Assembly (NCBI GenBank): GCA_031266335.1
Contig: JAISBF010000144.1
Coordinates: 1-41,845, forward strand
Source: Verrucomicrobiales bacterium
GTDB lineage: Bacteria > Verrucomicrobiota > Verrucomicrobiia > Methylacidiphilales > JAAUTS01
Length of the DNA stretch: 41,845 nucleotides
Direction of reading: 5' to 3'
Positions 9,590 to 29,079 of this stretch are shown in pieces. Position 1 is the stretch's first letter. Each line of letters opens with the position of its first letter. The notes under the pieces were generated by a model. It saw only the letters and a list, made by a program, of their open reading frames with translations. It was not told the origin of the DNA and did not search any database. A program made the translations under genes and the position numbers.

Positions 9590-10504
9590 ATGGCAGACGG
9601 GCACACACCGGTGTTGTTGGGGGAAGTCATGGAAGTATTGCAACCAGGCGAAGGCAGGCGAATGCTCGACGCGACTTTTGGGCGCGGCGGGCACAGCCGC
9701 GCCATGCTGGCGACCGGCGCGTCCGTGGTGGCGCTGGACCGGGACGCTGACGCCGAGGTCGCGGCCCAGTCGCTGACAGTGGAGTTTCCCGGCGCGTTCC
9801 GGTTCCGCCGCGCAAATTTTTCCGCACTGTCAGCGGTCGCGGAGGAATTGGGGCCGTTCGACGGCATTTTGCTCGACCTGGGCGTGTCATCGCCGCAACT
9901 GGACACGGCGGCGCGCGGCTTCAGTTTCCAGCAGGACGGGCCGCTGGACATGCGAATGGACCAGGCCGCCACGGTCAGCGCCGCCGAGTTGGTGAACCGC
10001 GCCGCTGAGCCGGAGCTGGCGGAGTTGATCTTTAAATTCGGCGACGAGCCGCGCGCGCGCCGCATCGCCCGCGCCATGGTCAGCGCCCGCGCGCGGGAAA
10101 AAATCACCCGCACCGCGCAACTGGCGGCGGTGGTCGAGGCCGCGGTCGGTGGCCGGCGCGGGGCGAAAATCCATCCCGCCACCAAGACCTTCCAGGCGCT
10201 GCGCATCGCGGTCAACGACGAGCTGGGCGCGTTGCGCGCGGCGCTGACGGCCGCGCCGGCGGCGCTGACAATGGGCGGGCGGCTGGGCGTCATCAGTTTT
10301 CACTCGCTGGAGGACCGCCTGGTGAAGCAGTTCATCGCCACCCGCAGCGAACCGGAATTGCGCGGCGAGGGCCAGGCCTTCGGTTGGCCGAATCCCGATT
10401 ATTGTTTCAGGAAAATCGGCCGCTGGCTGCCCGCTGACACTGAGGTGGCCGCCAATCCGCGCGCCCGCAGCGCCCGCTTGCGCGGCGCGGAAAGGATCGC
10501 ATGA
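9590..10504 (+). CDS. rsmH: 16S rRNA m4C1402 methyltransferase
   Basis: HTPVLL, DATFGRGGHS, DLGVSSPQLD, FQALRIAVNDEL, SFHSLEDR and NPRARSARLR. Confidence 0.97.
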   Translation: MADGHTPVLLGEVMEVLQPGEGRRMLDATFGRGGHSRAMLATGASVVALDRDADAEVAAQSLTVEFPGAFRFRRANFSALSAVAEELGPFDGILLDLGVSSPQLDTAARGFSFQQDGPLDMRMDQAATVSAAELVNRAAEPELAELIFKFGDEPRARRIARAMVSARAREKITRTAQLAAVVEAAVGGRRGAKIHPATKTFQALRIAVNDELGALRAALTAAPAALTMGGRLGVISFHSLEDRLVKQFIATRSEPELRGEGQAFGWPNPDYCFRKIGRWLPADTEVAANPRARSARLRGAERIA

Positions 10505-10872
10505 GCCGCAACCGCATCAAATCCGCCAACAGTTTGCGGCCTCGCTGGCTGGGATGGGTGATTGTCGTCACGATAGTGGCGGCCGGTCTCGGCGGTCTGT
10601 ACGTGTATTGGCAAAACAAAATCGATGTCCTCGCCAAGGATAACAAAAAACTGGAAGCGGAGCTGGCTGATTGGCAAAAGAAGAACGGCCGGTTGGCCCT
10701 GCAACGCCAGAGCTTGACCACGCCGAATTCGCTGGTCCGGCGGCTGGACTATTTTCATATCGAGATGGTGGCGTTGAACAAATTACCGGTGCTGGACGCG
10801 CAAAGTTTCCGCGCGACCGAACCCTCCATGCTGGCGCGCGGCCCCAGGCCGGGCGGGGAGAGTTATCCGTGA
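10501..10872 (+). CDS. ftsL: Putative cell division protein FtsL
   Basis: Short basic N-terminus, one TM helix and a coiled coil. Lies between rsmH and ftsI with 4-bp overlaps at both ends. Confidence 0.7.
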   Translation: MSRNRIKSANSLRPRWLGWVIVVTIVAAGLGGLYVYWQNKIDVLAKDNKKLEAELADWQKKNGRLALQRQSLTTPNSLVRRLDYFHIEMVALNKLPVLDAQSFRATEPSMLARGPRPGGESYP

Positions 10873-12641
10873 ACCACGCGTTGCAACTCCGGGCGGTGTG
10901 GGTGCTGCTGTTGTTCGCGGTCGGGTTCACCGTCGTGTCGGCGCGCCTGATTCAGTTGCAGATATTGCGCCATGCCAAATACCAGGAGGAGGCCATGCGC
11001 GCGCAATGCCGCGTGATTCCGGTGCCGGCGCTGCGCGGCCGCATCCTGGACTGTCAGCGGCGGATTTTCGCCCAGAGCGTGCCGGTGGTGGATTTGTACA
11101 TCGACGGCAAGCTGGCGACGGAAGATCCGGGCAGGCTGGACCAGGTGGCCCGGTTGCTCGGCCTGCCACCCGCAGAGTTGCGCGCCAGGCTGTCCCCGGT
11201 CAGGCGGAACGAATTGCTCCAGCCGGAACTGGATCCCGCGGTGGCCGACCAGTTGCGCGCCCTGACCCCGAAATACCGGCCGCTGATTTTCACCGACCGG
11301 ATCAAGCGGGTTTACCCGAACGGCTGGGAAGGCAGCCATGTCATCGGTTTCACCAACCAGGTGCCGCTGCAAATGGACGACTGGGAAAAAGCAATCAATA
11401 CCGAGCAGGGGATGCTAGGCATCGAGCAGGCGCTGGATTATTACCTGGCGGGCCGCGCCGGGGAACGCCGGGTGGTGCTGGACAAGACCGGCCGGGAAAT
11501 CCCGGCCTACCGGATGTCCGACCATCAGCCGCAGAACGGCTGCGACATCGTGCTGACCATCGACCAGGTGATCCAGCACGCGATTGAGGAGGAGGCGGAC
11601 CAATTGATGCGGCAATACACGCCGGCCACGGTGAGCATTCTGGTGCTGCGGCCCGCCACCGGGGAGGTGCTCGGCCTGACCAATCGCCCGACCTTCGACC
11701 CGGGCAACCGGCGGACGATGAGCGACCTCGCCAGTCTGCGCAATTGCACCCTGACGGATATTTATGAGCCAGGTTCGACCTTCAAGATTGTCACCGCCGC
11801 GGCGGTGTTGAGCGAGGGCGTCGCGACGCTGGAGACGCCGATTTATTGCGAGAACGGCGCCTTTTATTACGCCGGGACGACCTTGCGCGACACGCACGAG
11901 AACGGCACGCTGACCGTGCGCCGGGCGCTGGAAGTTTCCAGCAACATCGCGTTCGCCAAGCTGGGGCTGGCGCTGGGGCCGGACAAGTTGTACCGGCAAA
12001 TCCGGCTGATGGGCTTCGGCGAGCGCGCGCAGGAGACGAAATACGCGCTGCCCGGCGAGCAGAAGGGATTGCTGCGCCCGACCGACAAGTGGAGCAAAAT
12101 TTCGCTGACCCGGGTGCCGATTGGCTATGAAATCGGCGTGACGAATTTGCAGATGACCATGGCCATGGCCAGCGTCGCCAACGGCGGCCAACTGGTGCGG
12201 CCGCTGTTTATCAAGGCGATTGTTGATCCCAACGGCCGGGTGGTGCGGGAGTTTGCGCCGCAGGTGGTGCGGCGGGTGATTCCGGCCGACGTGGCGGCGC
12301 AACTTCGCCAGACGCTGGCCGGGGTGGTGTCCGACGAAGGCACCGCGCAGGGGGCGCAGGTCGAGGGCTGGACCGTGGCGGGCAAGACCGGCACCGCCAG
12401 GAAATTCATCAACGGTCATTACGAACACGGCGCCTACTACAGCTCGTTCATCGGTTTTGTGCCCGCCGACCAGCCGCAGTTCCTGATTTCCATCATGGTC
12501 AACCAGCCGCGCGGGCAGGTGTACGGCGGCAAAGTGGCGGGGCCGGCGTTCAGCAGCATCGCCACCAAGGTCGCGCAACAACTGAACATGATCGCCGGCG
12601 GGCCGCCGCGCGAGCTGGCGAAAGGAGCGGTCAGCCGATGA
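10869..12641 (+). CDS. ftsI: Class B penicillin-binding protein (FtsI/PBP3)
   Basis: RGRILD, RVYP, EPGSTFK (SxxK), SSN (SxN) and KTGT. The GTG start at 10869 overlaps the ftsL stop. Confidence 0.93.
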   Translation: MNHALQLRAVWVLLLFAVGFTVVSARLIQLQILRHAKYQEEAMRAQCRVIPVPALRGRILDCQRRIFAQSVPVVDLYIDGKLATEDPGRLDQVARLLGLPPAELRARLSPVRRNELLQPELDPAVADQLRALTPKYRPLIFTDRIKRVYPNGWEGSHVIGFTNQVPLQMDDWEKAINTEQGMLGIEQALDYYLAGRAGERRVVLDKTGREIPAYRMSDHQPQNGCDIVLTIDQVIQHAIEEEADQLMRQYTPATVSILVLRPATGEVLGLTNRPTFDPGNRRTMSDLASLRNCTLTDIYEPGSTFKIVTAAAVLSEGVATLETPIYCENGAFYYAGTTLRDTHENGTLTVRRALEVSSNIAFAKLGLALGPDKLYRQIRLMGFGERAQETKYALPGEQKGLLRPTDKWSKISLTRVPIGYEIGVTNLQMTMAMASVANGGQLVRPLFIKAIVDPNGRVVREFAPQVVRRVIPADVAAQLRQTLAGVVSDEGTAQGAQVEGWTVAGKTGTARKFINGHYEHGAYYSSFIGFVPADQPQFLISIMVNQPRGQVYGGKVAGPAFSSIATKVAQQLNMIAGGPPRELAKGAVSR

Positions 12642-14110
12642 AACTCGCCGACTTGACGCAAGGGGTGACGATCAGCGGGCGTTACGACGCCGCTGACGGT
12701 GACGTGGAAATTTCGTCGCTGGCGTATGACGCGCGGCAAGTGACGCCGGGGGCGCTGTTCTGCACGTGGCGCGGGTTCAAATCGGACGGGCACCGTTTTG
12801 TCGCCGACGCCGTGCGGCGCGGCGCGGCGGCGCTGCTGGTGGAAAAATTGCCGGAACCGCTGCCGCGCATTCCGACGCTGTTGGTGGCGTCGGGGCGGCG
12901 GGCGCTGGCGCTGCTGGCGGCGAACTTTTACGGCCATCCGGCGCAAGCGCTGGATTTGACGGGCATCACGGGCACCAACGGCAAATCGTCCACCGGCTTT
13001 TTGCTGCATTATCTCAAGGAACAAGCGGGCCGCAAATGCGGGCTGCTCGGCACGGTCGAGTATCGCGCGGGGGACGAGAAAATCGCCGCGGCGCGCACCA
13101 CGCCGGAAAGTTCGGACTTGCAGGCGCTGCTGGCGCAAATCCGCGCCGCCGGCTGCCGGTCGGCGGTGCTGGAGGTGTCCTCGCACGCGCTGGAACTCGA
13201 CCGCGTGTACGGCGTGCCGTTCCGCGCCGCGGTGTTCACCAACCTGACGCGCGACCACCTGGACTTCCACGGCACCATGCAGGACTATGGCCAGGCCAAG
13301 CGCAAATTGTTCGCCACGCTGCCGGCGGGCAGCCTGGCGGTGATGAATCTCGACGACCGCTACAGCGCGCGCCTACTGGACGCGGTGCCGCTGACCGCGC
13401 GGACCGTGACCTACGGATTCGCGCCGCCGGCGAGCTATCGGGCGGAAAACATCCAATTGAGCGCCAACGGCAGCGTCTTCGACCTGGTCACGCCGAACGG
13501 CACGCTGCTGGCGCGCTCGCCGTGGTTGGGCCGCTACAACGTCGCCAACACGCTCGCGGCGCTGACGGTGATGGCCGCCGGCGGCGAGGCTTCGCTGGAG
13601 GAACTGGCCGACTGGCTGCCGGCCGCGCCGTATGTGCCGGGCCGGTTGCAAAAAGTGCCGCACGGCGGCGGGTTCACCGTGCTGGTGGATTACGCCCACT
13701 CGGACGACGCGGTGCGCAACGTGCTGCAAAGCCTGCGCCCGCTGTGCCGGGGCAAATTGAAAATCTTGCTCGGCTGCGGCGGCGACCGCGACTGCACCAA
13801 GCGCCCGCTGATGGCGCTGGCGGCCTGCGAGCTGGCGGACGAGGCGGTGTTCACCGCTGACAATCCGCGCAACGAGGACCCCGCGCTGATTTTGCGCGAC
13901 ATGCAGGTGGGCGTGGCGAATTTCAGCAATTACCGGGTGATTCCCGACCGGGCGCAGGCGATTGCCGCCATTCTCCGGCACGCCGCTGACGCTGACCTCA
14001 TCGTGCTGGCGGGCAAGGGGCACGAGACCACGCAGGAAATCAACGACGCGCGGCACCCGTTTGCCGACGCCGAGGTGGCTGCGCAAATCCTGAACGGAGG
14101 CGCCGCATGA
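12638..14110 (+). CDS. murE: UDP-MurNAc-L-Ala-D-Glu:meso-DAP ligase
   Basis: GITGTNGKSS, EVSSHAL, TNLTRDHLDFH and DYAH. The DNPR motif indicates meso-DAP specificity. Confidence 0.96.
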   Translation: MKLADLTQGVTISGRYDAADGDVEISSLAYDARQVTPGALFCTWRGFKSDGHRFVADAVRRGAAALLVEKLPEPLPRIPTLLVASGRRALALLAANFYGHPAQALDLTGITGTNGKSSTGFLLHYLKEQAGRKCGLLGTVEYRAGDEKIAAARTTPESSDLQALLAQIRAAGCRSAVLEVSSHALELDRVYGVPFRAAVFTNLTRDHLDFHGTMQDYGQAKRKLFATLPAGSLAVMNLDDRYSARLLDAVPLTARTVTYGFAPPASYRAENIQLSANGSVFDLVTPNGTLLARSPWLGRYNVANTLAALTVMAAGGEASLEELADWLPAAPYVPGRLQKVPHGGGFTVLVDYAHSDDAVRNVLQSLRPLCRGKLKILLGCGGDRDCTKRPLMALAACELADEAVFTADNPRNEDPALILRDMQVGVANFSNYRVIPDRAQAIAAILRHAADADLIVLAGKGHETTQEINDARHPFADAEVAAQILNGGAA

Positions 14111-15522
14111 GGGCCATGCCGTTGGGAGCCGTGGCGGAACTGGCCGACGGCCGGCTGGCGAGCGGGCCGGCGGCGCGTCACGCGCTGCGCGTGACCACGG
14201 ACACGCGCGCGCTGCGGCCGGGGGATTTGTTCGTGGCCTTGCGCGGCGACCATTTTGACGGCCATGATTTTGTCGCGCAAGCGGCGCAACAAGGCGCGGT
14301 CGGCGTATTGGTGAGCCGGCCGGACTCAGCGTCAGCGGTGCCGGCCGGTTGCGCGGTCATTCGGGTCGAGGACACCCTGGCCGGGTTGCAGCGGCTGGCG
14401 AAAAATTACCGGCGGACGCTGACCGTGAAAATCGTCGCGGTCACCGGCAGCAACGGCAAGACCAGCACGAAGGAATTTGTCGCGGCGGTGCTGGGCGCGC
14501 GCTTCAAGGTGCATAAAACGGCGGGCAATTTGAACAACCACATCGGCGTGCCGCTGACGGTGCTCGGCATTGACGACACGCACGCCTACGCCGTGGTGGA
14601 GCTGGGCATGAATCATCCGGGCGAACTCGCGCCGCTGGTGGAGATTGCCAGGCCGGACCTCGGCATCATCACCAACATCGGCTGGGCGCACGTCGAGGCG
14701 TTCGGTGGGCGGGATGAAATCGCGCTGGAAAAGGCGCGGGTGTTCGCGGCGCTGCCCGCCGACGGTCTCGCCGTGGTGAACGGCGACGACGAGCTGTCGC
14801 TGACCGTGGCGCGGCCGCTGACGGTGGCGCGGGCCGTGACCGTTGGCACCGGCGCTGACGGTGATTACCAAATCGTGTTGAAAAACAGCTCGCCGGCGGC
14901 CACGGAATTTTGGTTCGGCCGTACCAGCGCCGGCGCTGGCGGGGTCGTGGTCGCCCTGCCGCTGGCCGGCTGGCACCTGGCGCGCAATGCGGCACTGGCA
15001 GCGGCGCTGGGCGCGGAACTGGGCGTGGCGTGGCCGTGCATCGCCGCGGCACTGGCCGCGGTGAAATTGCCGGGTAATCGTTTGTCGGTGAGAAAATTCC
15101 GCCGCGGCTGGCTGCTGGACGACACGTACAACGCCAGCCCCGATTCGATGCTGGCGGCGTTCGCGACGCTGCAAAACCTGCCCGGCGCGGGATTCCGGGT
15201 CGCGCTGCTCGGCTCGATGGGCGAACTCGGCGCTGACAGTGAGCGGTTGCACCGCGAGATTGGCGCGGCGGCGGCGCGGGCGGGATTCGAGATTTTGCTG
15301 GCGCTCGGCGACCACGCGCGGGATTTGGTCGCGGGCGCTGACGCCGAGAGCGGCGGCAAGGTCTGGGCGAAGCATTTCGCCGACCATCAGGCACTGTCAG
15401 CGGCGTACGCGCGGGTCGCGCGGGCGGACGACAAGATTTTGGTGAAAGGCTCGCGCAGTCAGCGGATGGAACTGGCGGTGCGGGAACTGGAACGATTGGA
15501 GCGGTCATGTTGTATTTCCTGA
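14107..15522 (+). CDS. murF: UDP-MurNAc-tripeptide:D-Ala-D-Ala ligase
   Basis: TGSNGKTSTKE, NLNNHIGVPLT, ELGMNHPGE, DDTYNASP and KGSR. Confidence 0.96.
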   Translation: MRAMPLGAVAELADGRLASGPAARHALRVTTDTRALRPGDLFVALRGDHFDGHDFVAQAAQQGAVGVLVSRPDSASAVPAGCAVIRVEDTLAGLQRLAKNYRRTLTVKIVAVTGSNGKTSTKEFVAAVLGARFKVHKTAGNLNNHIGVPLTVLGIDDTHAYAVVELGMNHPGELAPLVEIARPDLGIITNIGWAHVEAFGGRDEIALEKARVFAALPADGLAVVNGDDELSLTVARPLTVARAVTVGTGADGDYQIVLKNSSPAATEFWFGRTSAGAGGVVVALPLAGWHLARNAALAAALGAELGVAWPCIAAALAAVKLPGNRLSVRKFRRGWLLDDTYNASPDSMLAAFATLQNLPGAGFRVALLGSMGELGADSERLHREIGAAAARAGFEILLALGDHARDLVAGADAESGGKVWAKHFADHQALSAAYARVARADDKILVKGSRSQRMELAVRELERLERSCCIS

Positions 15523-16604
15523 GTTATTGGCAAGATGAGTTCGGCCCGCTGCGGATGTTCGAATACGTGACCTTCCGCGCCGTGATGGCCGCGTTGTGCA
15601 CCTTTGTGTTCACGCTGTGGGTGGGGCCGGCGGTGATCCGGGCGCTGACGCGCCTGAAGCTCGGCCAGCCGATTCGCGGCCGGGAGGAGGTGCGCGAACT
15701 GGCGGATTTGCACGGCGGCAAAAAAGGCACGCCGACCATGGGCGGGCTGCTGATATTGTGTTCGCTGACGATGGGGGCGCTGTGCTGGTGCCGCACTGAC
15801 AATCATTTCCTGTGGATGGTGTTGATACCTACATTATTGTTAGGTGTCCTGGGCTTCGTGGACGATTACCAGAAAATCCGCCAGAAGAAATCCGCCGGCA
15901 TCAGCAGCCGGCAGAAATTCCTGTGGCAAAGCGTCATCGCGCTCGCGGCGGGCGCGGCGCTGCTGTTGCATCCGGCGACCGCCGACGGCGCGCGGCTGTT
16001 GCAGGTGCCGTTTGTGAAACTGCCGGTGATTGACATGGGCTGGCTGGCGCTGGGGTTGTTCGCGCTGGTCATTGTCAGCGCGTCGAACGCGGTGAACCTG
16101 ACCGACGGGCTGGACGGGCTGGCGGCGGGCTGCACGCTGCCGGTGACGGTGTTTTACGGCGCGCTGGCGTATCTGGTCAGCCACAAGATTTCGGCGGATT
16201 ACCTGCTGCTGCCGCGCGTGCCGCAGGCCGAGGAACTGACGGTGTACGCGGCGGCGCTGGCGGGGTCCTGCCTGGGTTTTTTATGGTTCAACTGCCATCC
16301 GGCGAAAGTGTTCATGGGCGACACGGGGTCGCTGGCCATCGGCGGTTCCATCGCGCTGCTGGCGATTTGCGTGGGGCAGGAACTGCTGCTGGTGGTGGTG
16401 GGCGGCGTGTTAGTGATGGAAGCGGGGTCGGTGATTTTGCAGGTGGCGTCGTTCAAGCTGACCGGCCGGCGGATTTTCGCCATGTCGCCGATTCATCATC
16501 ATTTTGAACTGAAGGGATGGAGCGAAACCGCGGTGGTGGTGAGGTTCTGGATTTTGTGTCTGGTCTTCGCCGTCATCGGCCTGGCGACGTTGAAAATACG
16601 ATGA
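15507..16604 (+). CDS. mraY: Phospho-MurNAc-pentapeptide transferase
   Basis: KKGTPTMGG, NAVNLTDGLDGLA, FMGDTGS and PIHHHFE. Confidence 0.97.
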   Translation: MLYFLSYWQDEFGPLRMFEYVTFRAVMAALCTFVFTLWVGPAVIRALTRLKLGQPIRGREEVRELADLHGGKKGTPTMGGLLILCSLTMGALCWCRTDNHFLWMVLIPTLLLGVLGFVDDYQKIRQKKSAGISSRQKFLWQSVIALAAGAALLLHPATADGARLLQVPFVKLPVIDMGWLALGLFALVIVSASNAVNLTDGLDGLAAGCTLPVTVFYGALAYLVSHKISADYLLLPRVPQAEELTVYAAALAGSCLGFLWFNCHPAKVFMGDTGSLAIGGSIALLAICVGQELLLVVVGGVLVMEAGSVILQVASFKLTGRRIFAMSPIHHHFELKGWSETAVVVRFWILCLVFAVIGLATLKIR

Positions 16605-17926
16605 AGGAAAATTTTGTCAGCGGCCGGCGGGTGGTCGTCATGGGACTGGGGGAAAGCGGCCGGGCCGCCGCCGAACTCTTGATACAGAAAGGAGCCAGCG
16701 TGATTATACGGGACAGTTATTTGAATGAGCGCATCGACCAGATGGCGCGGCAGTTGCAACTGCGCGGCGCGCGCGTGGAAACCCAGCCGGCGGGCTTCAC
16801 GCCCTGCCGCTTCGACCTGGGCGTGCTGTCGCCCGGCATTGATCCACAGGTGCCGCTGGTGCGGCAACTGCGGCGCGCGCGCGTGCCCGTGGTCGGCGAG
16901 GTCGAGCTGGCCGCCCGTTTCTGCGACACGCCGGTCGTGGCGGTCACCGGCACCAACGGCAAAAGCACCACCACCGAACTGGTGGCGGCGGCGCTGACCG
17001 CGGGCGGCCTGCGCACCACGGCCTGCGGCAACCTCGGCGTGCCGTTCAGCGACGTGGTGCGCGGCGGGGATTTTTACAATGTCATCACGCTGGAGGTGAG
17101 TTCGTTCCAACTGGAAACCATCGAGCACTTCCGCCCGCGGGTGGCGGTGTATTTGAATTTCACGCCCGACCATCTGGACCGTTACCCGACACTGGCAGCG
17201 TATCGCCAGGCGAAAATCCGCATTTTCATGAATCAGACGGCGGCGGATTTTGCGGTGGTGAATCCCGCTTGCGAGTTGCCGGCGCTGGCGGCGAAGAAAA
17301 TCACCATCAGCGCTGATCATGATGACGCGGATTACACTTTTCGTGACGGCGCGCTGTACGCGGGCGGGCAAAAAATCCTCATGCAGGAAGCCACCAACCT
17401 CCGTGGCCCGCACAACGCGGAGAACCAACTGGCGGCGCTGGCGGTGGCGGATCTTTACGGCGTGGCGCGGCCGGACGCGATCGCCGCGCTGCGCGCCTAC
17501 CGCGCGCTGCCGCACCGTTGTGAACTGGTGCGCGAACTGGACGGGGTGACTTACATCAACGACTCCAAGGCCACCAATATTGACGCGCTGGAGAAGGCGC
17601 TGGCCGGGCAGACGCGGCCGGTGGTGCTGATTGCGGGCGGCAAGGACAAAGGCTTTGATTTCGCGCCGCTCAAGGCGCTGATGGTGAAAAAAGCCAGGGC
17701 GGTGGTCGCCATCGGCGAGGTGCAAAACCAACTGGTGCGGGCGTGGGGCCAGCATGTGCCTTGCCATCGCGCGGCGGATCTTGCCGAGGCGGTCAGCCTG
17801 GGTCGCCGCCTGGCGAAGCCGGGGGACACGGTGCTGCTGTCGCCGGGCTGCTCCAGCTACGACATGTTCAAGAATTTTGCGGACCGGGGACAGCAATTCA
17901 AGGAACTGGTCGCCAAATTGTCCTGA
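16601..17926 (+). CDS. murD: UDP-MurNAc-L-Ala:D-Glu ligase
   Basis: GLGESG, TGTNGKSTTT, EVSSFQLE, NDSKATN and LLSPGCSSYD. The ATG at 16601 overlaps the mraY stop. Confidence 0.96.
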   Translation: MKENFVSGRRVVVMGLGESGRAAAELLIQKGASVIIRDSYLNERIDQMARQLQLRGARVETQPAGFTPCRFDLGVLSPGIDPQVPLVRQLRRARVPVVGEVELAARFCDTPVVAVTGTNGKSTTTELVAAALTAGGLRTTACGNLGVPFSDVVRGGDFYNVITLEVSSFQLETIEHFRPRVAVYLNFTPDHLDRYPTLAAYRQAKIRIFMNQTAADFAVVNPACELPALAAKKITISADHDDADYTFRDGALYAGGQKILMQEATNLRGPHNAENQLAALAVADLYGVARPDAIAALRAYRALPHRCELVRELDGVTYINDSKATNIDALEKALAGQTRPVVLIAGGKDKGFDFAPLKALMVKKARAVVAIGEVQNQLVRAWGQHVPCHRAADLAEAVSLGRRLAKPGDTVLLSPGCSSYDMFKNFADRGQQFKELVAKLS

Positions 17927-17958
17927 AAACAACATCAAACCGATAAGGAGAACATACC

Positions 17959-18834: not shown

Positions 18835-18839
18835 ACCGC

Positions 18840-19982
18840 ATGGGCAAATTCAGCGCCATTATTCTGCTGGGAGCGGTGTCGGCCCTCGTCGCCATCGGCT
18901 TCGTGATTCTGACCAGTGTCAGCGCCTTCGCTTCCGCGAACAATGGTAACGCCTATTACTTTGTTATCCGCCAGGCGATTTTCCTGGGCGCGGGCGCGGG
19001 CGTTTGCTGGCTGGCCGCCAAGTGGGATTATCATCAGTGGAGCCGGTTTTCCCCGGCGCTGCTGGTGCTCGGGCTGGCGCTGATGGCGGCGTGTTTTTTG
19101 CCGCATTTCGGCGTGCGCGTCAATGGCGCCAACCGCTGGATTAACCTGGGCTTCATCCGGGCGCAACCGGTGGAGCTGGCCAAGTTCGGGTTGATGGCCA
19201 GCCTGGCCTGGTGGCTGGGGACGCGCGCCGGCCAGTTGAAAAATTTCCGGGTCGGCGTGCTGGCGCCGCTGGGCATGTTGGTGGCGCTGGCGGTGCTGTG
19301 CCAGTGGCAGGATGACATCGGCAGCGCGGCGCTGATGCTGATAGTGGCGCTGGGGCTGATGTTTGTCGCCGGCACCAGGCAACGCTACCTGGTCGTGATC
19401 CTGGCGCTGGGAGTTGGCGCCATTGGCTTGATGGCGTATGTCAAGCCGCAGAAATGGGCGCGGCTGACCGCGTTTACCAACGTCGAGCAGCTGACCGACG
19501 GCATCAACCTGCAACCGCACAACGCGCTGATCGCCTTCGGCTCCGGCGGCATCAGCGGGCGCGGCCTCGGCCAGGGGGTGCAAAAAATGAAGTATCTGCC
19601 CGAGGCGCACACGGATTTTATTTTTCCGAACATCGGTGAGGAACTGGGAGTGATTGCCACGCTGCTGGTGGTGCTGGCCTTTTTGCTGCTGGTGCTGGCG
19701 GGCTGGGAAATCGCCTGCCACGCGCCGGACCAGACCGGTTTGCTGCTGGGACTCGGCGCCACCTCGCTGATCGGCTTGCAGGGGCTGATGAACATGGCGG
19801 TGGTGACGGCGCTGATGCCGACCAAGGGCATCGGCCTGCCGTTCATCAGCTATGGAGGCTCCAATCTATTGTTATGCTTCCTGCTGGTCGGGATTTTGCT
19901 GAACATTCATTTTCAGGCGATTTACGAACCGCGCAAACGCCGGCCGGCCAGTCTGCCGGCGGCCATGACGGCGCGGATGTAG
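18840..19982 (+). CDS. ftsW: SEDS peptidoglycan glycosyltransferase FtsW
   Basis: NGANRWI, QPVELAK, YLPEAHTDFIF and GLPFISYGGS. Start taken at ATG 18840. Confidence 0.94.
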   Translation: MGKFSAIILLGAVSALVAIGFVILTSVSAFASANNGNAYYFVIRQAIFLGAGAGVCWLAAKWDYHQWSRFSPALLVLGLALMAACFLPHFGVRVNGANRWINLGFIRAQPVELAKFGLMASLAWWLGTRAGQLKNFRVGVLAPLGMLVALAVLCQWQDDIGSAALMLIVALGLMFVAGTRQRYLVVILALGVGAIGLMAYVKPQKWARLTAFTNVEQLTDGINLQPHNALIAFGSGGISGRGLGQGVQKMKYLPEAHTDFIFPNIGEELGVIATLLVVLAFLLLVLAGWEIACHAPDQTGLLLGLGATSLIGLQGLMNMAVVTALMPTKGIGLPFISYGGSNLLLCFLLVGILLNIHFQAIYEPRKRRPASLPAAMTARM

Positions 19983-19991
19983 GGACTGGTT

Positions 19992-21101
19992 ATGGCGAAA
20001 ATCGGCATAGCATGTGGGGGCACCGGGGGACATCTTTATCCCGGGCTGGCGGTGGCGGAGGCGCTGACGGCGCTGGGCCATGCCGTCCGGTTGTATGTTT
20101 CCGCCAAGGACCTCGACCGCGCGGTGCTGGCCGATTACCCGGCCTTCGACAGCGTGCCGCTGCCGGTCACCGGCTGGCCGGGTTACGGCCCGCGGCTGCC
20201 GAAATTTTTCCTGAACTTCTGGGCGGCCTGCCGCCTGGCCGGGCGCGAGACGCGCCAGCAGCGGCTCGACGCGGTGCTGGGCATGGGCGGGTTCACCTCC
20301 GCGCCGCTCATCATCAGCGCCGCGCGGCGGGGGGTGCCGACGCTGCTGCACGAGTCCAACGCCATCCCCGGCAAGGTGACCCGGCTGCTGGCCAGGCGGG
20401 TTGACGCGGTGCTGGTCGGGTTCAACGAATGCGCCCGGCACCTGCCGGGCATCAATGCCAGGCACACGGGCACGCCGATACGCCGCACGCTGCGCAAGCT
20501 GGCGCGGGAACAGGCGGCGAAGTTTTGGGGCCTGGCGGCGGCGCCGTTCACCGTGGCGGTCATCGGCGGCAGCCAGGGGGCGCGGGGGCTGAACCGGCTG
20601 GTGATTCAGGCGATGGCGGACTGGCCGCCGCTGCAACGTGACTTGCAATTCATCCACCTGGCCGGGCCGCAGGAAAGCGATTTATTAGTAGCCAATTATC
20701 AGCGCAACGGCTTGCGCGCCGCGGTGCGGCCGTATTGCCGCGCGATGGAAAATTTGTACAGCCTGGCCGATTTGGTGATCGCCCGCGCGGGGGCGGCGTC
20801 GCTGACCGAGCTCAGCTATTTCGGCCTGCCGTCGATTTTGGTGCCATATCCCGCCGCCGCCGAGGATCACCAGACCCGCAACGCGCGGATTTTTGTCAAG
20901 GCCGGCGCGGCGCTGATGGTGCCGGAAGGCAAGCGCGCCGCGCCGCAACTGGCGCTGATGGTGCCGGATTTGCTGGCCGATCGCGACCGGCTGGCGCGCA
21001 TGTCCGCCGCGGCGGCGGCGCTGAGCGTGCGCGACGCGGCGCGGCGCGTGGCCGAGGAAGTGCAACGGGCGCTGCCAGCGAATGACGGAGGGGGCGCGTG
21101 A
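19992..21101 (+). CDS. murG: Lipid II GlcNAc transferase
   Basis: GGTGGHLYP, HESNAIPG, GGSQGA, RAGAAS and HQTRNA. Confidence 0.97.
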   Translation: MAKIGIACGGTGGHLYPGLAVAEALTALGHAVRLYVSAKDLDRAVLADYPAFDSVPLPVTGWPGYGPRLPKFFLNFWAACRLAGRETRQQRLDAVLGMGGFTSAPLIISAARRGVPTLLHESNAIPGKVTRLLARRVDAVLVGFNECARHLPGINARHTGTPIRRTLRKLAREQAAKFWGLAAAPFTVAVIGGSQGARGLNRLVIQAMADWPPLQRDLQFIHLAGPQESDLLVANYQRNGLRAAVRPYCRAMENLYSLADLVIARAGAASLTELSYFGLPSILVPYPAAAEDHQTRNARIFVKAGAALMVPEGKRAAPQLALMVPDLLADRDRLARMSAAAAALSVRDAARRVAEEVQRALPANDGGGA

Positions 21102-23473
21102 ACACCGACCGGTCAATCGCCGCGGCCGCGGAGTTGTTGCGTCAGCCCGGCGCGCGGGTCCACCTCGTCGCGGTCAGCGGCAGCGGCATGATCGGCCTGG
21201 CCAAACTGCTGCTCGACGCCGGCGTCACCGTCAGCGGCTCGGACTTGCAGCGCGGGAAACAAATCGCCGCGTTGGAACAACTGGGCTTGAAATTTTACCA
21301 GGGCCACGCCGCGCGGCAGGTTGACGGCGCGACATTGCTGGGGTATTCGTCGGCGATTGGCGCTGACAATGTCGAGCGCCGGGCCGCCGCTGACGGTGGC
21401 ATCCCGCAATTCCGGCGCGCGGAAATTCTCGCGGCGCTGGCGCGGCGCAAGCGGCTGCTGACCGTCAGCGGCACGCACGGCAAGACGACGACGACGCTGA
21501 TGCTCACGCGCATTTTCCAGGCGGCGGGGCGCGACCCCGGTTTTTACATCGGCGCGGACGTGCCGGATTTCGAGTTCAGCGCGGGACTGGGCGCCGCGGA
21601 CGGCGACCTGATTATCGAGGCCGACGAGAGCGACGGGACGCTGGCCTGTTACGCGCCCGCCGCCGTGCTGGTGCTGAATATCGAGCCGGACCACCTCGAC
21701 CACTACGCCGATCTTGGGCACATCAAGGCGGCGTTCCTCGCGCTGGCGCGGAAATCCGGGACGCCGCCGGTGCTGTGCGCTGACGATGAGCGCTGCCGCG
21801 AGTTGGCGCAACAACTGCCGCTGGCGGTGACTTACGCGCTGGGGCACGACGCGGAATTTCGCGCGGAACAGCTCACCGTCAGCGCCGGCGTCTCGACGTT
21901 CGAGGTGACGCGGCGCGGGGAACAACTGGGCGCGCTGACCGTGACGCTGCCGGGCCGGCACAACGTCAGCAACGCGCTCGGCGCGGTGGCGGCGGCACTG
22001 TCAGCGGGCGTCAGCTTCGCGGACTGTCAGCGGGCGCTGGCGGCGATGCGCGGCGCGGCGCGGCGGTTTGAAATTTTGCATCGTGACGCGGATTATCTCG
22101 TGGTGGACGATTACGCCCATCACCCGTCGGAAATCCGCGCGACCCTGGCGGCGGCGAAAAATTGCGGCGCCCGGCGCGTGCTGGCGGCGTTCCAGCCGCA
22201 CCGATACTCGCGCTCGTTGCATTTGCAACACGAGTTCGCGGGCGCGTTCGCCGGCGCTGACCGTGTGTTCATCACCGACATTTACAGCGCGGGCGAGCCG
22301 CCGATTGACGGCGTGACGGGAGCGACATTCGCGGCGGCGGTTGGTGGGAAAGTGACTTACGCGCCGACGCTGGACGATTTGCGGACGGCGCTGACGCTGG
22401 CGTTGCAGCCGGGCGATTGCGTGCTGACGATGGGCGCGGGCGATATTTGCAAGGTCAGTGTCAGCGTGGCGCGCGACTTGCGGATGTTTCGCCGGCTCCA
22501 GCAATTACTGGTCGTGTCGCCCCGTCATCCTGAGCGGAGCAATGAAGTGGCGCAGTCGATGGATCGTGTTGACCAATCGCTCGCTGACGGTGAGCCGAAA
22601 GCGCCTGGCGGGTCGGTGGTGAAATTGTACGAGCCGCTGAGCAAACACACCACGCTGCGGGTGGGCGGGCCGGCGCAGTTCTGGGTTGAACCCGCTGACG
22701 ATGAGGCGTTGCGGCGCGTGGCGGATTTTTGTCGCGCGCAAAACCTGCCGCTGACAGTCATCGGGCGCGGCTCGAATTTGCTGGTGCGCGACCGCGGCAT
22801 TCGCGGCGTGTGCGTCCACCTCGGCGCGCCGGCGTTTGGCGCAATCACCGTCAGCGGCACTGACATCAAGGCCGGGGCCGGCGCGCGGTTGCGCGACCTC
22901 GTCCACGCGGCGAAGCGCGCGGGGCTGGGCGGGCTGGAATTTCTGGAAGGCATTCCGGGCAATCTCGGCGGGGCGCTGCGGATGAACGCCGGCGCGTTCG
23001 GCGGCGCGCTCGGCGAGGTCATCGTCAGCGCGCGCGCGCTGGCGCCCGACGGCAAAATCCTGGAACTTCCGCGCGCGGCGCTGCCGATGAACTACCGCGA
23101 CACGCCGTTGTTCGCCGACCATATCGCGCTCGGCGCGACCTTGCGCGGCGCTGCCGGTGACATCGCCGCCATCGGCGCGAAGCTTGACGACTATCGCGAA
23201 AAACGCCACGCCGCGCAGCCGAAGCAGCCGAGCGCGGGCAGCACGTTCAAAAACCCGCCGGCACTGTCAGCGGGGCGGTTGCTGGAGGAACTCGGCTTGA
23301 AGGGAAAAAAAATCGGCGGCGCGCGATTTTCGACTGTACATGCTAATTTTATTATCAATGATGGGAGCGCGACGGCCACGGACGCGCTGGCGTTGATTGA
23401 ACTGGCGCGCCGCGCGGCGCGGGAACAGCGCGGCGTGGAGCTGGCGCTGGAGGTGAAGGTGCTGGGTGATTGA
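21098..23473 (+). CDS. murC: Bifunctional MurC (N-terminal) - MurB (C-terminal) fusion
   Basis: MurC motifs: SGTHGKTTTT, EADESDG, DDYAHHPSEI, FQPHRYSR, MGAGDI. MurB motifs: HTTLRVGGPA, GRGSNLL, GIPGNLGGALRMNAGA, PSAGSTFKNP, HANFIIN. One continuous frame. Confidence 0.95.
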   Translation: MNTDRSIAAAAELLRQPGARVHLVAVSGSGMIGLAKLLLDAGVTVSGSDLQRGKQIAALEQLGLKFYQGHAARQVDGATLLGYSSAIGADNVERRAAADGGIPQFRRAEILAALARRKRLLTVSGTHGKTTTTLMLTRIFQAAGRDPGFYIGADVPDFEFSAGLGAADGDLIIEADESDGTLACYAPAAVLVLNIEPDHLDHYADLGHIKAAFLALARKSGTPPVLCADDERCRELAQQLPLAVTYALGHDAEFRAEQLTVSAGVSTFEVTRRGEQLGALTVTLPGRHNVSNALGAVAAALSAGVSFADCQRALAAMRGAARRFEILHRDADYLVVDDYAHHPSEIRATLAAAKNCGARRVLAAFQPHRYSRSLHLQHEFAGAFAGADRVFITDIYSAGEPPIDGVTGATFAAAVGGKVTYAPTLDDLRTALTLALQPGDCVLTMGAGDICKVSVSVARDLRMFRRLQQLLVVSPRHPERSNEVAQSMDRVDQSLADGEPKAPGGSVVKLYEPLSKHTTLRVGGPAQFWVEPADDEALRRVADFCRAQNLPLTVIGRGSNLLVRDRGIRGVCVHLGAPAFGAITVSGTDIKAGAGARLRDLVHAAKRAGLGGLEFLEGIPGNLGGALRMNAGAFGGALGEVIVSARALAPDGKILELPRAALPMNYRDTPLFADHIALGATLRGAAGDIAAIGAKLDDYREKRHAAQPKQPSAGSTFKNPPALSAGRLLEELGLKGKKIGGARFSTVHANFIINDGSATATDALALIELARRAAREQRGVELALEVKVLGD

Positions 23474-24368
23474 CATGGATTTACGTGCTAAACATACGCT
23501 GGTGCTGAAAGGCGGCGTGTCCGCCGAGCGGGCGGTGTCGTTGCGCAGCGGCGCGGCCATCGCGGCGGCGTTGCGGTCGCGTGGGTTCACGGTCAGCGAA
23601 CTGGATGTCACGACGCGGGATTTTCAATTGCCCGCTGACACTGACCTGGTGTTCATCGGCCTGCACGGCGTGTTCGGCGAGGACGGCGAGTTGCAGGAGC
23701 GGCTGGAGCGCGAAAAAATTCCCTTCACCGGCAGCGGGTCGGCGGCCAGCCGCAACGCTTTCGACAAATTACGCGCCAAAAGTTTGTTGCTGAAAAACGG
23801 CGTGAAGGTCGCGGCCGGCGAGTTGTGGAAGCCGGCGCTGCCGCTGACCGTGCCCTGCGTGCTGAAGCCGGTGGCCGAGGGGTCGAGCGTGGGCTTGTCA
23901 ATCGTGCGCGCCGCCGCCGATGTGCCGCGCGCGGTCGCGGCGTCGCTGGCGGTGAGCAAACCGATGTTAGTGGAGGAATTCATCGCCGGGCGCGAGGTGA
24001 CGGTCGGCATTCTGGGTGACGCGCCGCTGCCGGTGATCGAGGTGGAGCCAAAGGGCGGCGATTTTGATTACGCGCACAAATACACGGCGGGGCTGGCGGT
24101 GCACACCTGCCCGGCGAAGTTTGCCGCGGCGCTGACGGCGCGGATTCAACACGTCGCGCTGGCCGCGCACCGCGCGCTGGGTTGCGCGGTGTATTCGCGG
24201 GTGGATTTGATCGTGCCCGCTGACGGCGACCCCGTGGTGCTGGAGGTGAACACGCTGCCGGGGATGACCGAATTGAGTTTCATTCCCGAGGCGGCGCGCG
24301 CGGCGGGCCTTGAGTTCGCGGCGCTGTGCGAGAAAATTTTAACCTGGTCCGTGGAGGCGGCGCGCTGA
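23466..24368 (+). CDS. ddl: D-alanine--D-alanine ligase
   Basis: GGVSAERAVSLRSG, LHGVFGEDG, EGSSVG, DYAHKY and EVNTLPGMT. Confidence 0.96.
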   Translation: MIDMDLRAKHTLVLKGGVSAERAVSLRSGAAIAAALRSRGFTVSELDVTTRDFQLPADTDLVFIGLHGVFGEDGELQERLEREKIPFTGSGSAASRNAFDKLRAKSLLLKNGVKVAAGELWKPALPLTVPCVLKPVAEGSSVGLSIVRAAADVPRAVAASLAVSKPMLVEEFIAGREVTVGILGDAPLPVIEVEPKGGDFDYAHKYTAGLAVHTCPAKFAAALTARIQHVALAAHRALGCAVYSRVDLIVPADGDPVVLEVNTLPGMTELSFIPEAARAAGLEFAALCEKILTWSVEAAR

Positions 24369-25231
24369 TGGCGAGATCCTGGCATACGGTTGGCGGCCGG
24401 CGGCGGAATGTGCTGCACGTCGAGGTGCAGAAACGCAGCCGGTCGAAAAAGGCGCGGTTGCTCGCGCTGAAATGGTGCGGCGTGCTGGCGCTGTCGGCGG
24501 CCTTTATCGCGGCGCTGTGGTTCGGCCTGTTGGCGGTGCTGGAACACGCGCTGTACCGCAACCCGGATTTTGCGTTGCGCGAGGTGGAGGTGCAGGTGCA
24601 GGGCGCGGTGTCGCGCGCGGAAGTGTTGCGGACGGCCGGGTTGCGGACGGGGCAGAACATCATGGCGCTGGACCTTGGGAGAATCCGCCAGAGTTTGCGG
24701 CAGATTTCCTATGTGGACACAGTGCGGGTGGAGCGGGCGCTGCCGTCGAGATTGAAAATCGTCATCGAGGAACGGCAGCCGGTGGCGCGCATTGATCCAC
24801 GGTCAGCGGACGGCAACGAGCTGGCGCAGGCGACTTATTACATCGACGCCGAGGGTTACATGATGCGGCCGAAGCCGGGCGAGGAGTTGAAACTCCTGCC
24901 GGTCATCAAGGGCGTGCCCGCCGACCAGGTGCAGGACGGTCAGCGGACCGACCGGCCGGAAATTCTCAGCGCGCTGAACCTGCTGCGGCTGGCCGATTAC
25001 GCGGCCTTGAAGGGCGATTTGGATTTGACCCAGATCGGCGTGGACAGCAAGGGCTATCTGGTGTTGAACACGCGCGACCAGGGGCGGATTCATTTTCGCA
25101 CGGATTTTCTGGCGGAGCAGGTGCGCCGCTTGAAAACCATCCTGGAATACGCGCATGAGCGCGGCCTGGTCATTCGGACGGTGGATTTGACGCCGGAACG
25201 GAACGTGCCGGTGGTGTTTGCCAATTTATAA
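24368..25231 (+). CDS. ftsQ: Cell division protein FtsQ/DivIB
   Basis: TM helix plus a POTRA-like domain (VRVERALPSRLKIVIEERQPVA). Lies between ddl and ftsA with a TGATG overlap. Confidence 0.88.
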   Translation: MARSWHTVGGRRRNVLHVEVQKRSRSKKARLLALKWCGVLALSAAFIAALWFGLLAVLEHALYRNPDFALREVEVQVQGAVSRAEVLRTAGLRTGQNIMALDLGRIRQSLRQISYVDTVRVERALPSRLKIVIEERQPVARIDPRSADGNELAQATYYIDAEGYMMRPKPGEELKLLPVIKGVPADQVQDGQRTDRPEILSALNLLRLADYAALKGDLDLTQIGVDSKGYLVLNTRDQGRIHFRTDFLAEQVRRLKTILEYAHERGLVIRTVDLTPERNVPVVFANL

Positions 25232-25242
25232 ACGGAGGCTGT

Positions 25243-26478
25243 ATGTTTTGGAAAAAGAAAGAAAGTTGCGCGATTACGGCGGTGGACGTGGGCACCAGCA
25301 AGATTGCGGTGGCGGTCGGCGAGCTGCGCCCGGACGGCTCGCTGGTGCTGCTGGGGGTCGGCGAGTCACCGTCAGCGGGCATTCGCAAGGGCGAAATCGT
25401 GGATTTTCAACTGGCGCAACAGGCGATTGAGCAGGCCCTGGCGGACGCGGAGGCCAAGACCGAATGCCTGATTGAGTATGTGTATCTCAGCCTGACCGGG
25501 ATGCATCTGGAGCCGAAAACCATCCGCCTGAAAACGCCGATTGACTCGGAAGACCATCGCATCACCGCGGCGCACGTTGAGCGCCTGGGCGAGCAAATGG
25601 AAAATTACGCCATCCCGGCGGAGCATGAAATCATCCACAGCGCGGTGCAGCATTACTATATCGACCGCAACGCGCCGACCGCCGACCCGATCGGGTTGAA
25701 CTCGCAGACCCTGGAGGCCAGTTATCATATCGTGCACGGCCTGCGCACGCGGCTGGAGACCCTGTTCCGTTGCGTGATGGAACTGGATATCAAGGTGGTG
25801 CATTACGCCCTGTCGTCGTACGCCAGTTCGCAGGCGATTCTGACCCGGCAACAAAAGGCGCTGGGCGCGGTGGTCATCGACATGGGGGCGGGAGTGACCG
25901 ATTACCTGGTGTACGCTGACGGTGCGGTGGCGCATACCGGCGTGCTGGCGGTGGGCGGCGACCATGTGACCCAGGATCTGGCCCTCGGCTTGAAACTGCC
26001 GTTCTCCAAGGCGGAGCAGTTGAAAATCAAGCACGGCAATTTATCCACCGGCGCGGAACGGCCCAACGCCCGGCTGACCATCGAAAAGGACATGAATTCC
26101 GACGAGCGCAGCGTGTACGTGGAGTCGCTCGGCAAAATCATGGATTTGCGCATCCGGGAAACCCTGGAACTGATTCGCGACGAAATTGACAGCAAGGGAT
26201 TGTGGGCGCGGGTGTCCGGCAACGTGTATCTCACCGGCGGCGCCTCGCAAGTGCCCGGCCTGCAACGGCTGGCCGGCGAAGTGTTTCCCGCGCCGGCGCG
26301 GCTGGCGCATGAGTTTTTGCTGGAGGGCGACCAGACCTATAACAAGCGCCCGGATTTGTCCACGGTGCTGGGGCTGTTGCGGTATGCGCAGCATTATGAC
26401 TTGCAGCACGAGCGCCTGACCGGCTGGGCGCGGTGGCGGCGGCGGGTGCAGGATTGGGTGCCGCTGCGGATTTTTTAA
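25243..26478 (+). CDS. ftsA: Cell division protein FtsA
   Basis: DVGTSKI, GIRKGEIVD, IDMGAGVTD, GGDHVTQDLA, LTGGAS and a C-terminal amphipathic helix. Confidence 0.95.
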   Translation: MFWKKKESCAITAVDVGTSKIAVAVGELRPDGSLVLLGVGESPSAGIRKGEIVDFQLAQQAIEQALADAEAKTECLIEYVYLSLTGMHLEPKTIRLKTPIDSEDHRITAAHVERLGEQMENYAIPAEHEIIHSAVQHYYIDRNAPTADPIGLNSQTLEASYHIVHGLRTRLETLFRCVMELDIKVVHYALSSYASSQAILTRQQKALGAVVIDMGAGVTDYLVYADGAVAHTGVLAVGGDHVTQDLALGLKLPFSKAEQLKIKHGNLSTGAERPNARLTIEKDMNSDERSVYVESLGKIMDLRIRETLELIRDEIDSKGLWARVSGNVYLTGGASQVPGLQRLAGEVFPAPARLAHEFLLEGDQTYNKRPDLSTVLGLLRYAQHYDLQHERLTGWARWRRRVQDWVPLRIF

Positions 26479-26490
26479 CACGGAGACAAT

Positions 26491-27828
26491 ATGATTGATT
26501 TCAAAAACGACGGGGAATTTCAGGCGCCGACCGCGGCCAGCCTGGCCGGTCACGTCATCATCGGCCTGGGTTCCGCCGGGGTGAACATCGCGGATCAACT
26601 GGTGCTGGACCACCGCGAGCACGGCGCGGTGTTCGGCTTTGACACGGACGAGCAGGTCATTCGCGGCGCGGTCATGCCCGACAAGCTGCTGCTGGGCTGG
26701 CGGCGGATTCACGGGCTGGGCGCCGGCGGCGACCCGGCGCTGGCGGCGGAGATTGCGCGCGAGGAGCGCCGGGAAATCAGCGACCAGTTGCAGGGCACGC
26801 GCAGCGCGGTGCTGGTCACCGGCTTGGGCGGCGGCACCGGCAGCGGCATGGCGCCGGAGTTCTGCCGACTGCTGAAACAGCTCGACGCCACGGTGGTGGT
26901 GCTGGCGGTGACGCCGTTCGCGTTTGAGGGCCGGCGCCGGTTGCAGCAGGCGGCGGAGGCGCTGGCGAGTCTCCGGCGAGAAGCCGACGCGGTGCTGTGC
27001 CTGTCGAACAGCCGGTTGTTGGGATGTTTCGGCCCGGAACTGGACTTGCGCCAGGGATTTGCCGCGATGAACGGCCTGGTGGGGCGGGCCAGTGTGAATT
27101 TGCGCGCGGTGCTGCATCAGACCGGGCCGATGCAAATCCATCTGGCCGACTTGCGGAATGTGCTGGCGGAACATGCCGACGACGCGGCGACCCTGGAAAA
27201 CTGCTGGGCCGGGTGCGGCCTTGGCGCCGGCGCTGACCGTGCCCGCGCGGCGGTGGACGAGGTGCTGGGCGGCCCGTTGTTCGCGGATGGCTGCGCCTGG
27301 TCGAGCGGCACGGCGGTGATTGCCTGCCTCAGCGGCGGCGGGAACCTGTCCATCGGCGAGTTTCAGACGACCATCGAATATTTGCGACAGGAAATCCCGG
27401 TGGAGCTGCCGATTTTGGCAGGCATGGCGCTGGAACCCGGCGAAACCGATATGTTAGGGCTGACGCTGCTGGTGGTCGGCCAGACGGTTGCGGAGGGAGT
27501 GACAACCGAGTCGAAGGCGCGGGAAGAGTTGGCGCTTGAGCCGGCGCCGGCACACGCACCGTCAGCGGCGGCAAGCCCCCGCCGGCCGGTGGAAACGCCG
27601 CCGGTCGCCGGCCGGCCGGTCAGCGCCGGGGTGGAGGAGTTGCCCGCGCTTGCCGATGAACCCGGCAACCAGGGCACGGAGCAAAAATATTTCGTGCAGC
27701 AGGAGGAATTGCCGCTGGACCAGAAAATTTACCGGGGCCGGTTCGAGAAATCGGCGGCCACCATTTGCCACGGCGAGGATTTGGATCAGCCGACATTCAT
27801 GCGGCGCAATGTCAAAATCCGCTTATAA
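26491..27828 (+). CDS. ftsZ: Cell division protein FtsZ (divergent)
   Basis: GLGAGGDP, the GGGTGSG signature, PFAFEG and a C-terminal core peptide DLDQPTFMRR. Follows ftsA. Confidence 0.9.
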   Translation: MIDFKNDGEFQAPTAASLAGHVIIGLGSAGVNIADQLVLDHREHGAVFGFDTDEQVIRGAVMPDKLLLGWRRIHGLGAGGDPALAAEIAREERREISDQLQGTRSAVLVTGLGGGTGSGMAPEFCRLLKQLDATVVVLAVTPFAFEGRRRLQQAAEALASLRREADAVLCLSNSRLLGCFGPELDLRQGFAAMNGLVGRASVNLRAVLHQTGPMQIHLADLRNVLAEHADDAATLENCWAGCGLGAGADRARAAVDEVLGGPLFADGCAWSSGTAVIACLSGGGNLSIGEFQTTIEYLRQEIPVELPILAGMALEPGETDMLGLTLLVVGQTVAEGVTTESKAREELALEPAPAHAPSAAASPRRPVETPPVAGRPVSAGVEELPALADEPGNQGTEQKYFVQQEELPLDQKIYRGRFEKSAATICHGEDLDQPTFMRRNVKIRL

Positions 27829-29069: not shown

Positions 29070-29079
29070 GCGCGGGGGA

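Follow-up and report, generated by a model that had tools for sequence, protein, structure and literature searches.

A bipartite DNA word written through the division and cell wall genes and the genome of a Verrucomicrobiales bacterium, and its dialect in a sister species

Why does one short string of DNA recur in rsmH, murF, murC-murB, ftsA and ftsZ, and why in several reading frames? The question is raised by 41,845 nucleotides from a Verrucomicrobiales bacterium (GenBank assembly GCA_031266335.1, contig JAISBF010000144.1, positions 1 to 41,845, forward strand), here called the window. This stretch corresponds to contig C61 in a 222-contig assembly (G000; 2.77 Mb, 61% G+C, 78% complete) and carries a division and cell wall (dcw) cluster. 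A preliminary description, made from the letters alone, proposed that the string imprints itself on core proteins through rare codons and that the constraint acts on the DNA rather than on the protein, as described for uptake sequences. The string belongs to a word, (T)CA-NN-GTCAGCG, that is spread over the whole genome and has a dialect in a sister species.

The word and its imprint on codons and proteins

The commonest 11-mer of the genome is CACCGTCAGCG, with 1770 copies in 2.77 Mb; an order-3 Markov model, itself inflated by the word, predicts 23.6. The looser forms CA..GTCAGCG and TCA..GTCAGCG occur 5129 and 2610 times, and the 7-base core GTCAGCG is found 8235 times, or about once per 330 bases. 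The logo of 8223 core copies reads t-C-A-n-n-G-T-C-A-G-C-G-g-c, in which the separate C and A each reach 77% and both positions of the spacer tolerate change; the word is thus bipartite and non-palindromic. Among single-letter variants, the letters of CA and CAGCG are strict, and the spacer and the G-T preceding CAGCG are looser. Beyond about 14 bases, the flanks hold no information.

Exact copies are divided evenly between the contig strands (882 and 888), and a reversed control word is found once on each. When 10-kb bins are sorted by GC skew, a rough proxy for replication direction on short contigs, the degenerate word is split 432:475 in positive bins and 439:352 in negative bins. This amounts to 46:54 relative to the G-rich strand, and no replication polarity of the word was found. 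All 166 of the 10-kb bins carry at least five copies. Genes were modelled across the genome with a crude caller of our own, which gave 1993 genes and 84% coding sequence. On these models, genes contain about 90% of exact copies, and 793 of the 8235 cores lie outside called genes, which is an upper bound because the caller skips short and overlapping genes. With so few cores intergenic and no longer unit in the flanks, the word does not behave as a repetitive extragenic palindromic (REP) element or a miniature inverted-repeat transposable element (MITE).

Within the window, CNGTCAGCG has 85 matches, where 2.88 are expected; the maximum among 100 shuffles was nine and none reached 85. The preliminary description had placed GCACTGTCAGCG in rsmH, murF and the two parts of murC-murB, and these four positions are exact and the only ones in the window. 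Its two sites for [TG]CACCGTCAGCG, in ftsA and ftsZ, are also exact, and 11 further sites bring the window's total to 13. Pfam matches back the identities of all five genes and indicate that the dcw cluster is complete. Its gene order is mraZ, rsmH, ftsI, murE, murF, mraY, murD, a LysM gene, ftsW, murG, murC-murB, ddl, ftsQ, ftsA, ftsZ and namZ. The window as a whole, the cluster and the copies discussed here are as follows.

1..41845, both strands: 146 core 7-mers and 96 degenerate 11-mers, with 68 of the core 7-mers within 9824..27567
8983-29069, + strand: dcw cluster by Pfam and alignment, with mraZ to ftsZ at 8983..27828
9824..9835, + strand: GCA CTG TCA GCG (A-L-S-A) in rsmH, TCA GCG frame
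13560..13570, - strand: copy reading CTG ACG GTG (L-T-V) in murE
15391..15402, + strand: GCA CTG TCA GCG in murF
21225..21236, + strand: copy reading ACC GTC AGC (T-V-S) in murC-murB, the commonest sense frame
21995..22006, + strand: GCA CTG TCA GCG in the MurC part of murC-murB
23261..23272, + strand: GCA CTG TCA GCG in the MurB part of murC-murB
24218..24228, - strand: copy reading GCT GAC GGC (A-D-G) in ddl
25366..25377, + strand: TCA CCG TCA GCG (S-P-S-A) in ftsA
27556..27567, + strand: GCA CCG TCA GCG (A-P-S-A) in ftsZ

The copies are not confined to one reading frame. The 16 dcw genes have 71 cores, distributed over five frames: CTG ACx (22), GCT GAC (19), GTC AGC (16), TCA GCG (10) and CAG CG (4). 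Genome-wide, the same frames hold 2281 (CTG AC), 1886, 2333, 597 and 244 cores, respectively; by codon count, CTG AC, GCT GAC and TCA GCG hold 2291, 1894 and 599. The opposite-strand frame, which would read TGA, has zero cores genome-wide. The word therefore uses the five stop-free frames in both coding orientations, in keeping with the spread over several frames that had been described.

The word also concentrates certain codons. Genome-wide, the 7-base core holds 599 of 2649 TCA codons (22.6%) and 1894 of 5582 GCT codons (33.9%), compared to 1.6% of all codons. In the dcw genes, the word includes 12 of 18 TCA, 19 of 38 GCT and 5 of 30 GCA codons, compared to 2.9% of all codons, and codons ending in A or T make up 30.8% inside the word and 18.0% outside it. 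Outside the word, GCT is 4.2% of alanine codons. The use of TCA and GCT is thus sharply different inside and outside the motif, both genome-wide and in the dcw genes. The claim that the word is written through rare A/T-ending codons stands for TCA and GCT; the effect on GCA is weak. It is also confined to two of the five frames, GCT GAC and TCA GCG, which hold 1894 + 599 of the 7377 in-gene copies, or about one third. The two commonest frames, GTC AGC and CTG ACG, use preferred codons.

Permutation of the coding sequences separates the two levels at which genes are shaped. Genes hold 1590 exact copies. After within-gene synonymous permutation, which preserves every protein and its codon counts, 161 remain, and after whole-codon permutation 12 remain (ten runs each). 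Core copies fall from 7377 to 1756 and 698, respectively. Both codon choice and residue order have therefore been shaped. At the protein level, the tripeptides encoded by the word exceed their reversed forms:

TVS 1333, reversed SVT 272, ratio 4.9
LTV 1496, reversed VTL 502, ratio 3.0
ADG 1160, reversed GDA 337, ratio 3.4
VSG 1258, reversed GSV 360, ratio 3.5

ADT is hardly enriched (279, with 253 reversed).

Copies also overlap one another. Self-overlap is frequent genome-wide: there are 186 occurrences of GTCAGCGTCAGCG and 43 of the palindrome CGCTGAC-N-GTCAGCG. This suits a word made up of two TCA-SC-G half-units. In the DNA that lies outside gene calls, 26 inverted pairs of the form CGCTGAC, 3-30 bases, GTCAGCG were found, with folding energies of -10.9 to -31.9 kcal/mol. 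Seven of the 26 have runs of T or A and resemble intrinsic terminators, a tiny share of all copies.

Relatives and the sister-species dialect

Exact copies number 1081-2054 in four of the five species of the genus and 33 in the fifth. In four genomes from other genera of the family there are at most four copies, and in 32 genomes of the order's other families at most 27. The word-rich congeners of G000 are labeled G002, G003 and G004; the fifth species is G001, and the word-free genera are G005-G008. The syntenic dcw clusters of G001, G002, G003 and G005 were compared with that of G000. The tree of 11 dcw proteins common to the five genomes (5104 columns) is (G005,(G001,(G002,(G000,G003)))) with support of 100/99 and G005 as outgroup, though the program warned of uneven composition.

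G001 had been considered as a motif-free congener, and this is ruled out by a word of its own. Its dialect is TCG-NN-RTTAGCG, with the logo T-C-G-(C/T)-(C/G)-(G/A)-T-T-A-G-C-G-n-C. The form TCGNNRTTAGCG has 609 + 606 = 1215 copies in G001, where its reversed control has 13; each of 20 other genomes searched has at most 13, and G000 has seven. Both letter differences between the dialects are transitions. An earlier candidate for the G001 word, TCAGCGGCAC, was guessed from a 212-kb sample and rejected, as it has only 63 copies genome-wide and came from two repeat-rich pieces. The real dialect was recognized from words spread over all G001 pieces and from the dcw alignment. Clusters of G000-type words in G001 were also considered as transferred islands; they proved to be the same repeat-rich genes. 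These lie at G001:C2:1-20000 (62% G+C) and G001:C11:14000-33999 (58% G+C), two stretches of higher G+C that are dense in CAGCGGCAC-type words. They have the look of highly repetitive genes and supply most of the G000-type cores in G001.

In the dcw alignment, G001 has GTT AGC and CTA ACG where G000 has GTC AGC and CTG ACG. Of 71 sites, 11 have a dialect core (the G001 cluster has 32) that matches the G000 core in both alignment position and strand; circular-shift controls averaged 0.13 such matches and never gave more than two in 2000. In 17 other gene pairs with 44 dialect cores, the two kinds of core coincide at 10 of 76 sites (control maximum two in 500). This sharing of sites fits inheritance and independent gain at the same tolerant peptides alike.

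The dialect leaves its own imprint. In a 572-kb sample of G001, the dialect core holds 231 of 600 rare CTA codons, compared to 0.8% of all codons, and two of its frames are shut by TAG and TAA. The tripeptide pair ANG:GNA stands at 170:38 in the G001 sample and 295:249 in G000 (ratios 4.5 and 1.2). For ADG:GDA, the order is inverted, with 88:51 in the G001 sample and 1160:337 in G000 (ratios 1.7 and 3.4). At the ddl copy at 24218, the sister species has GCT AAT GGC (A-N-G) at the matching place. Asp or Asn, GTC or GTT and CTG or CTA at shared positions thus follow the word of the species. No other evidence shows as clearly that the constraint is on the DNA.

In the 16 dcw genes, the number of G000 cores that have the same core at the corresponding position of a relative is 66 of 72 for G003, 25 of 72 for G002, 3 of 72 for G001 and 1 of 64 for G005. 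The amino acid identities of the encoded residues are:

G000 and G003: 97.7% at word codons, 96.6% elsewhere
G000 and G002: 73.4% at word codons, 71.9% elsewhere
G000 and G001: 57.1% at word codons, 73.4% elsewhere
G000 and G005: 40.4% at word codons, 54.5% elsewhere

G001 and G005 both lack the G000 form of the word, and their mutual identity is 45.0% at word columns and 55.5% elsewhere (p 0.008). The copies therefore lie at intrinsically variable positions. Among columns on which G001 and G005 agree, G000 has a different residue in 17 of 77 word columns and in 304 of 2478 remaining columns (p 0.02); conserved residues have therefore been displaced by the word as well. Where rsmH has A-L-S-A at 9824, the aligned relatives have SLAS and DLAA, and the T-V positions of the murE copy at 13560 are A-A in both G001 and the outgroup. 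The pattern was repeated in 17 further G000-G001 orthologue pairs, with an identity of 47.0% at word codons (n=215) and 64.8% elsewhere (n=6545; p 1.5e-7). The suggestion that the word's tripeptides were gained at variable sites is borne out by these alignments, with the addition that residues on which relatives agree were replaced as well.

Word-free stretches and other features

The longest word-free stretches of the genome are of two kinds. The first is highly conserved genes, including the rpoA-rpsD-map-secY cluster, glycogen phosphorylase and RNase E/G. The second is low-GC, foreign-looking islands. One of these, C96:8726-14109, is 5.4 kb long with 42% G+C and zero cores. It has genes for a C-5 cytosine methylase and a Vsr-like endonuclease, for a receiver-domain protein and for a protein carrying two HATPase_c-type ATPase domains, and is probably a foreign restriction or defence island. 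Another, C43:8604-12830 (4.2 kb, 40% G+C), is also word-free and contains two long frames that have no Pfam match.

In the dcw cluster, MurC and MurB form a single fused protein of 791 amino acids (window 21098-23473), as do the corresponding frames of the relatives. A LysM-domain gene lies between murD and ftsW (window 17959-18834). The cluster has about 98% DNA identity to that of the sister genome G003, except for a 4.5-kb block at window 20000-24500. This block covers murG, murC-murB and ddl, where identity to G003 is about 87-96% per 300 bases, and it could be an imported recombination tract or a strain mosaic in the metagenome bin. Elsewhere, window 483-5171 is a frame of 1562 amino acids with many word copies, and its sole Pfam match is the PATR autotransporter repeat. 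The octamer GCGCGTGA forms dispersed tandem arrays of 4-14 units at 57 places on 53 contigs, none of them in the window. Examples are C20:1-112, C41:3-114 and C161:10695-10806, and many arrays lie at contig ends, where the assembly breaks.

What may read the word

The codon concentration, the spread over frames and the alignment at variable sites support the proposal of the preliminary description that the constraint acts on the DNA, as for uptake sequences. A drive at the DNA level is shown; what reads the DNA is the next question. Of the known mechanisms, biased DNA uptake fits best: by its resemblance to known systems, the word may be a DNA uptake sequence (DUS), with uptake as the reading step and a receptor as the reader. 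We regard this as evenly poised between right and wrong.

On this reading, word-bearing fragments would be preferred by a DNA receptor at the cell surface that belongs to the competence or type IV pilus system. The favoured fragments would recombine into the chromosome more often, and for this reason the word would build up by molecular drive wherever the protein tolerates it. The first thing to yield would be codon choice, with GTC AGC, CTG ACG and rare GCT and TCA codons; residues that tolerate change would follow, as T-V-S, L-T-V, A-D-G and x-S-A. In the sister species, a shift in receptor specificity would have retuned the word by two letters, and matching gene positions would have changed their codons and residues along with it.

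Competence genes are present in the genus, with comEC in 5/5 genomes, dprA in 4/5, a secretin in 5/5 and tandem pilT in 5/5. G000 has two full DprA matches (C78:3262-3882 and C94:4862-5476) where its relatives have one, the sign of a gene duplication or of a bin that mixes two strains.

Several observations weigh against uptake. Across the order, pilT is found in 21 of 21 genomes and comEC in 19 of 21, word-free genera included. Competence genes were therefore rejected as a discriminator of word-bearing species; they are compatible with uptake but are no argument for it. The search for a free-standing ComEA-like gene was negative, as HHH_3 matches were found only in frames of about 800 amino acids or longer. 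No candidate was identified for a receptor like ComP, the minor pilin that serves in Neisseria, and no search aimed at one was made. The copies are also placed otherwise than in known systems: genes hold about 90% of the exact copies, compared to 34.5-65% in the cases given in the available part of Findlay and Redfield 2009 (PMC2817400). The terminator-like copies number a few dozen, while about half of all DNA uptake enhancing sequences (DUES) are of this kind according to the accessible portion of a recent preprint (bioRxiv 10.1101/2025.10.24.684340).

The evidence for a reader at the DNA level fits equally well with a tag for self-DNA that is read by another intracellular system and kept by selection or biased repair instead of uptake. 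Candidates would be a recombination or repair cofactor, a nucleoid or chromosome-organizing protein, or a defence system that leaves tagged DNA untouched. The very high density, with a core in every 330 bases and mostly within genes, suits such a tag, as does the failure of competence genes to track the word. Known intracellular signals of this abundance differ from it. Chi and the FtsK-orienting polar sequences (KOPS), or architecture-imparting sequences, are over-represented oligomers of 5-8 bases that serve DNA-processing machines and are strongly skewed to one replication strand. The present word is non-polar and several times denser, and a polar signal of the Chi/KOPS type was rejected for lack of a strong strand skew. 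Moreover, no candidate reader was found for an intracellular tag, and two-letter dialects between sister species and inverted-pair terminators have so far been the signature of uptake sequences. A self-DNA tag of this kind is the main rival to uptake, and we put it forward tentatively as possible. If the word is not for uptake, an undescribed system would read its own chromosome about every 330 bases, would have shifted its specificity by two letters and would have rewritten residues, such as Asp to Asn, of essential division and cell wall enzymes throughout the proteome. We consider such a system rather unlikely.

Another explanation requires no reader of the whole word. Context-specific mutation or a mismatch-repair bias, such as that of a cytosine methylase coupled to very-short-patch repair, could turn near-matches into matches. 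Both dialect differences are transitions, and G000 does encode a C-5 methylase and a Vsr-like protein. The pair was considered as the driver and rejected. Vsr is present in only three of the five genus genomes, and was not found in G002 (77% complete) or in G003 (92% complete), which has 2054 copies of the word. In G000, the methylase and Vsr genes lie inside the low-GC, word-free island. Repair biases of the methylase/Vsr type shift word counts well under two-fold, and the effect here is about 130-fold (1590 exact copies compared to 12 after codon permutation). A bias at one base cannot yield a bipartite word with nine informative positions. This explanation is very improbable.

Selection on the protein or on translation, for favoured peptides or codon pairs, would suit the preferred codons of the two commonest frames, and is almost certainly wrong given that the same string is written in five frames, in both coding orientations and outside genes (793 of 8235 cores), drags in rare codons, loses about 90% of its exact copies under the protein-preserving synonymous permutation and, in the sister species, gives way to codons that spell the other dialect while residues are retained.

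Returning to uptake, the word can be set beside the systems it resembles. Uptake sequences have been described for two proteobacterial families only, according to the accessible portion of the same preprint (bioRxiv 10.1101/2025.10.24.684340). In the available part of Findlay and Redfield (PMC2817400), the uptake signal sequence (USS) and the DUS about double the tripeptides they encode, their frame bias follows preferred codons, and they fall at poorly conserved residues; in Neisseria meningitidis, 34.5% of copies are in genes.

Like the DUS of the Neisseriaceae, the word is a non-palindromic string of 10-12 bases with thousands of copies on both strands, variants of one or two letters between lineages, and inverted pairs that form terminator stems. 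The dialects of the Neisseriaceae DUS were reportedly described by Frye et al. in 2013. The present word belongs to another phylum, in the Verrucomicrobiales, has an unrelated sequence, lies about 90% in genes with few copies in terminators, and is known here from sequence alone.

The likeness to the USS of the Pasteurellaceae is found in the imprint. In both, frame bias is set partly by preferred codons, certain tripeptides are enriched, copies fall at poorly conserved residues, and foreign-looking DNA has few copies. In contrast to the USS, word codons here are less conserved than others when compared with relatives that lack the G000 form, and one heavily used frame relies on the rare GCT. 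The imprint is also stronger, at 3-5 fold over the reversed tripeptides compared to the roughly two-fold given in the available text of PMC2817400.

A further short word is written through genes and spacers alike in cyanobacteria. The highly iterated palindrome HIP1 occurs about once per kilobase in both, and its reader is not known. Unlike HIP1, the present word is bipartite and is not its own reverse complement.

No published description of this word or of a Verrucomicrobia uptake sequence was found among the matches listed by a search that covered few subscription-journal papers. What is new is the quantified imprint on the codons and proteome of essential genes, the preference for variable sites together with the displacement of conserved residues, and the dialect-dependent swaps of codons and of Asp and Asn. 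In practice, the word can serve as a clear-cut marker in binning, in detecting foreign DNA within these genomes and in the search for its receptor. It would also offer a natural experiment in how far a drive at the DNA level overrides codon preference and protein conservation. If the word is an uptake sequence, it would be a third, independent case in a distant phylum, a dialect pair within one genus would come along with it, and the recognition of self-DNA by short words would be a recurrent solution.

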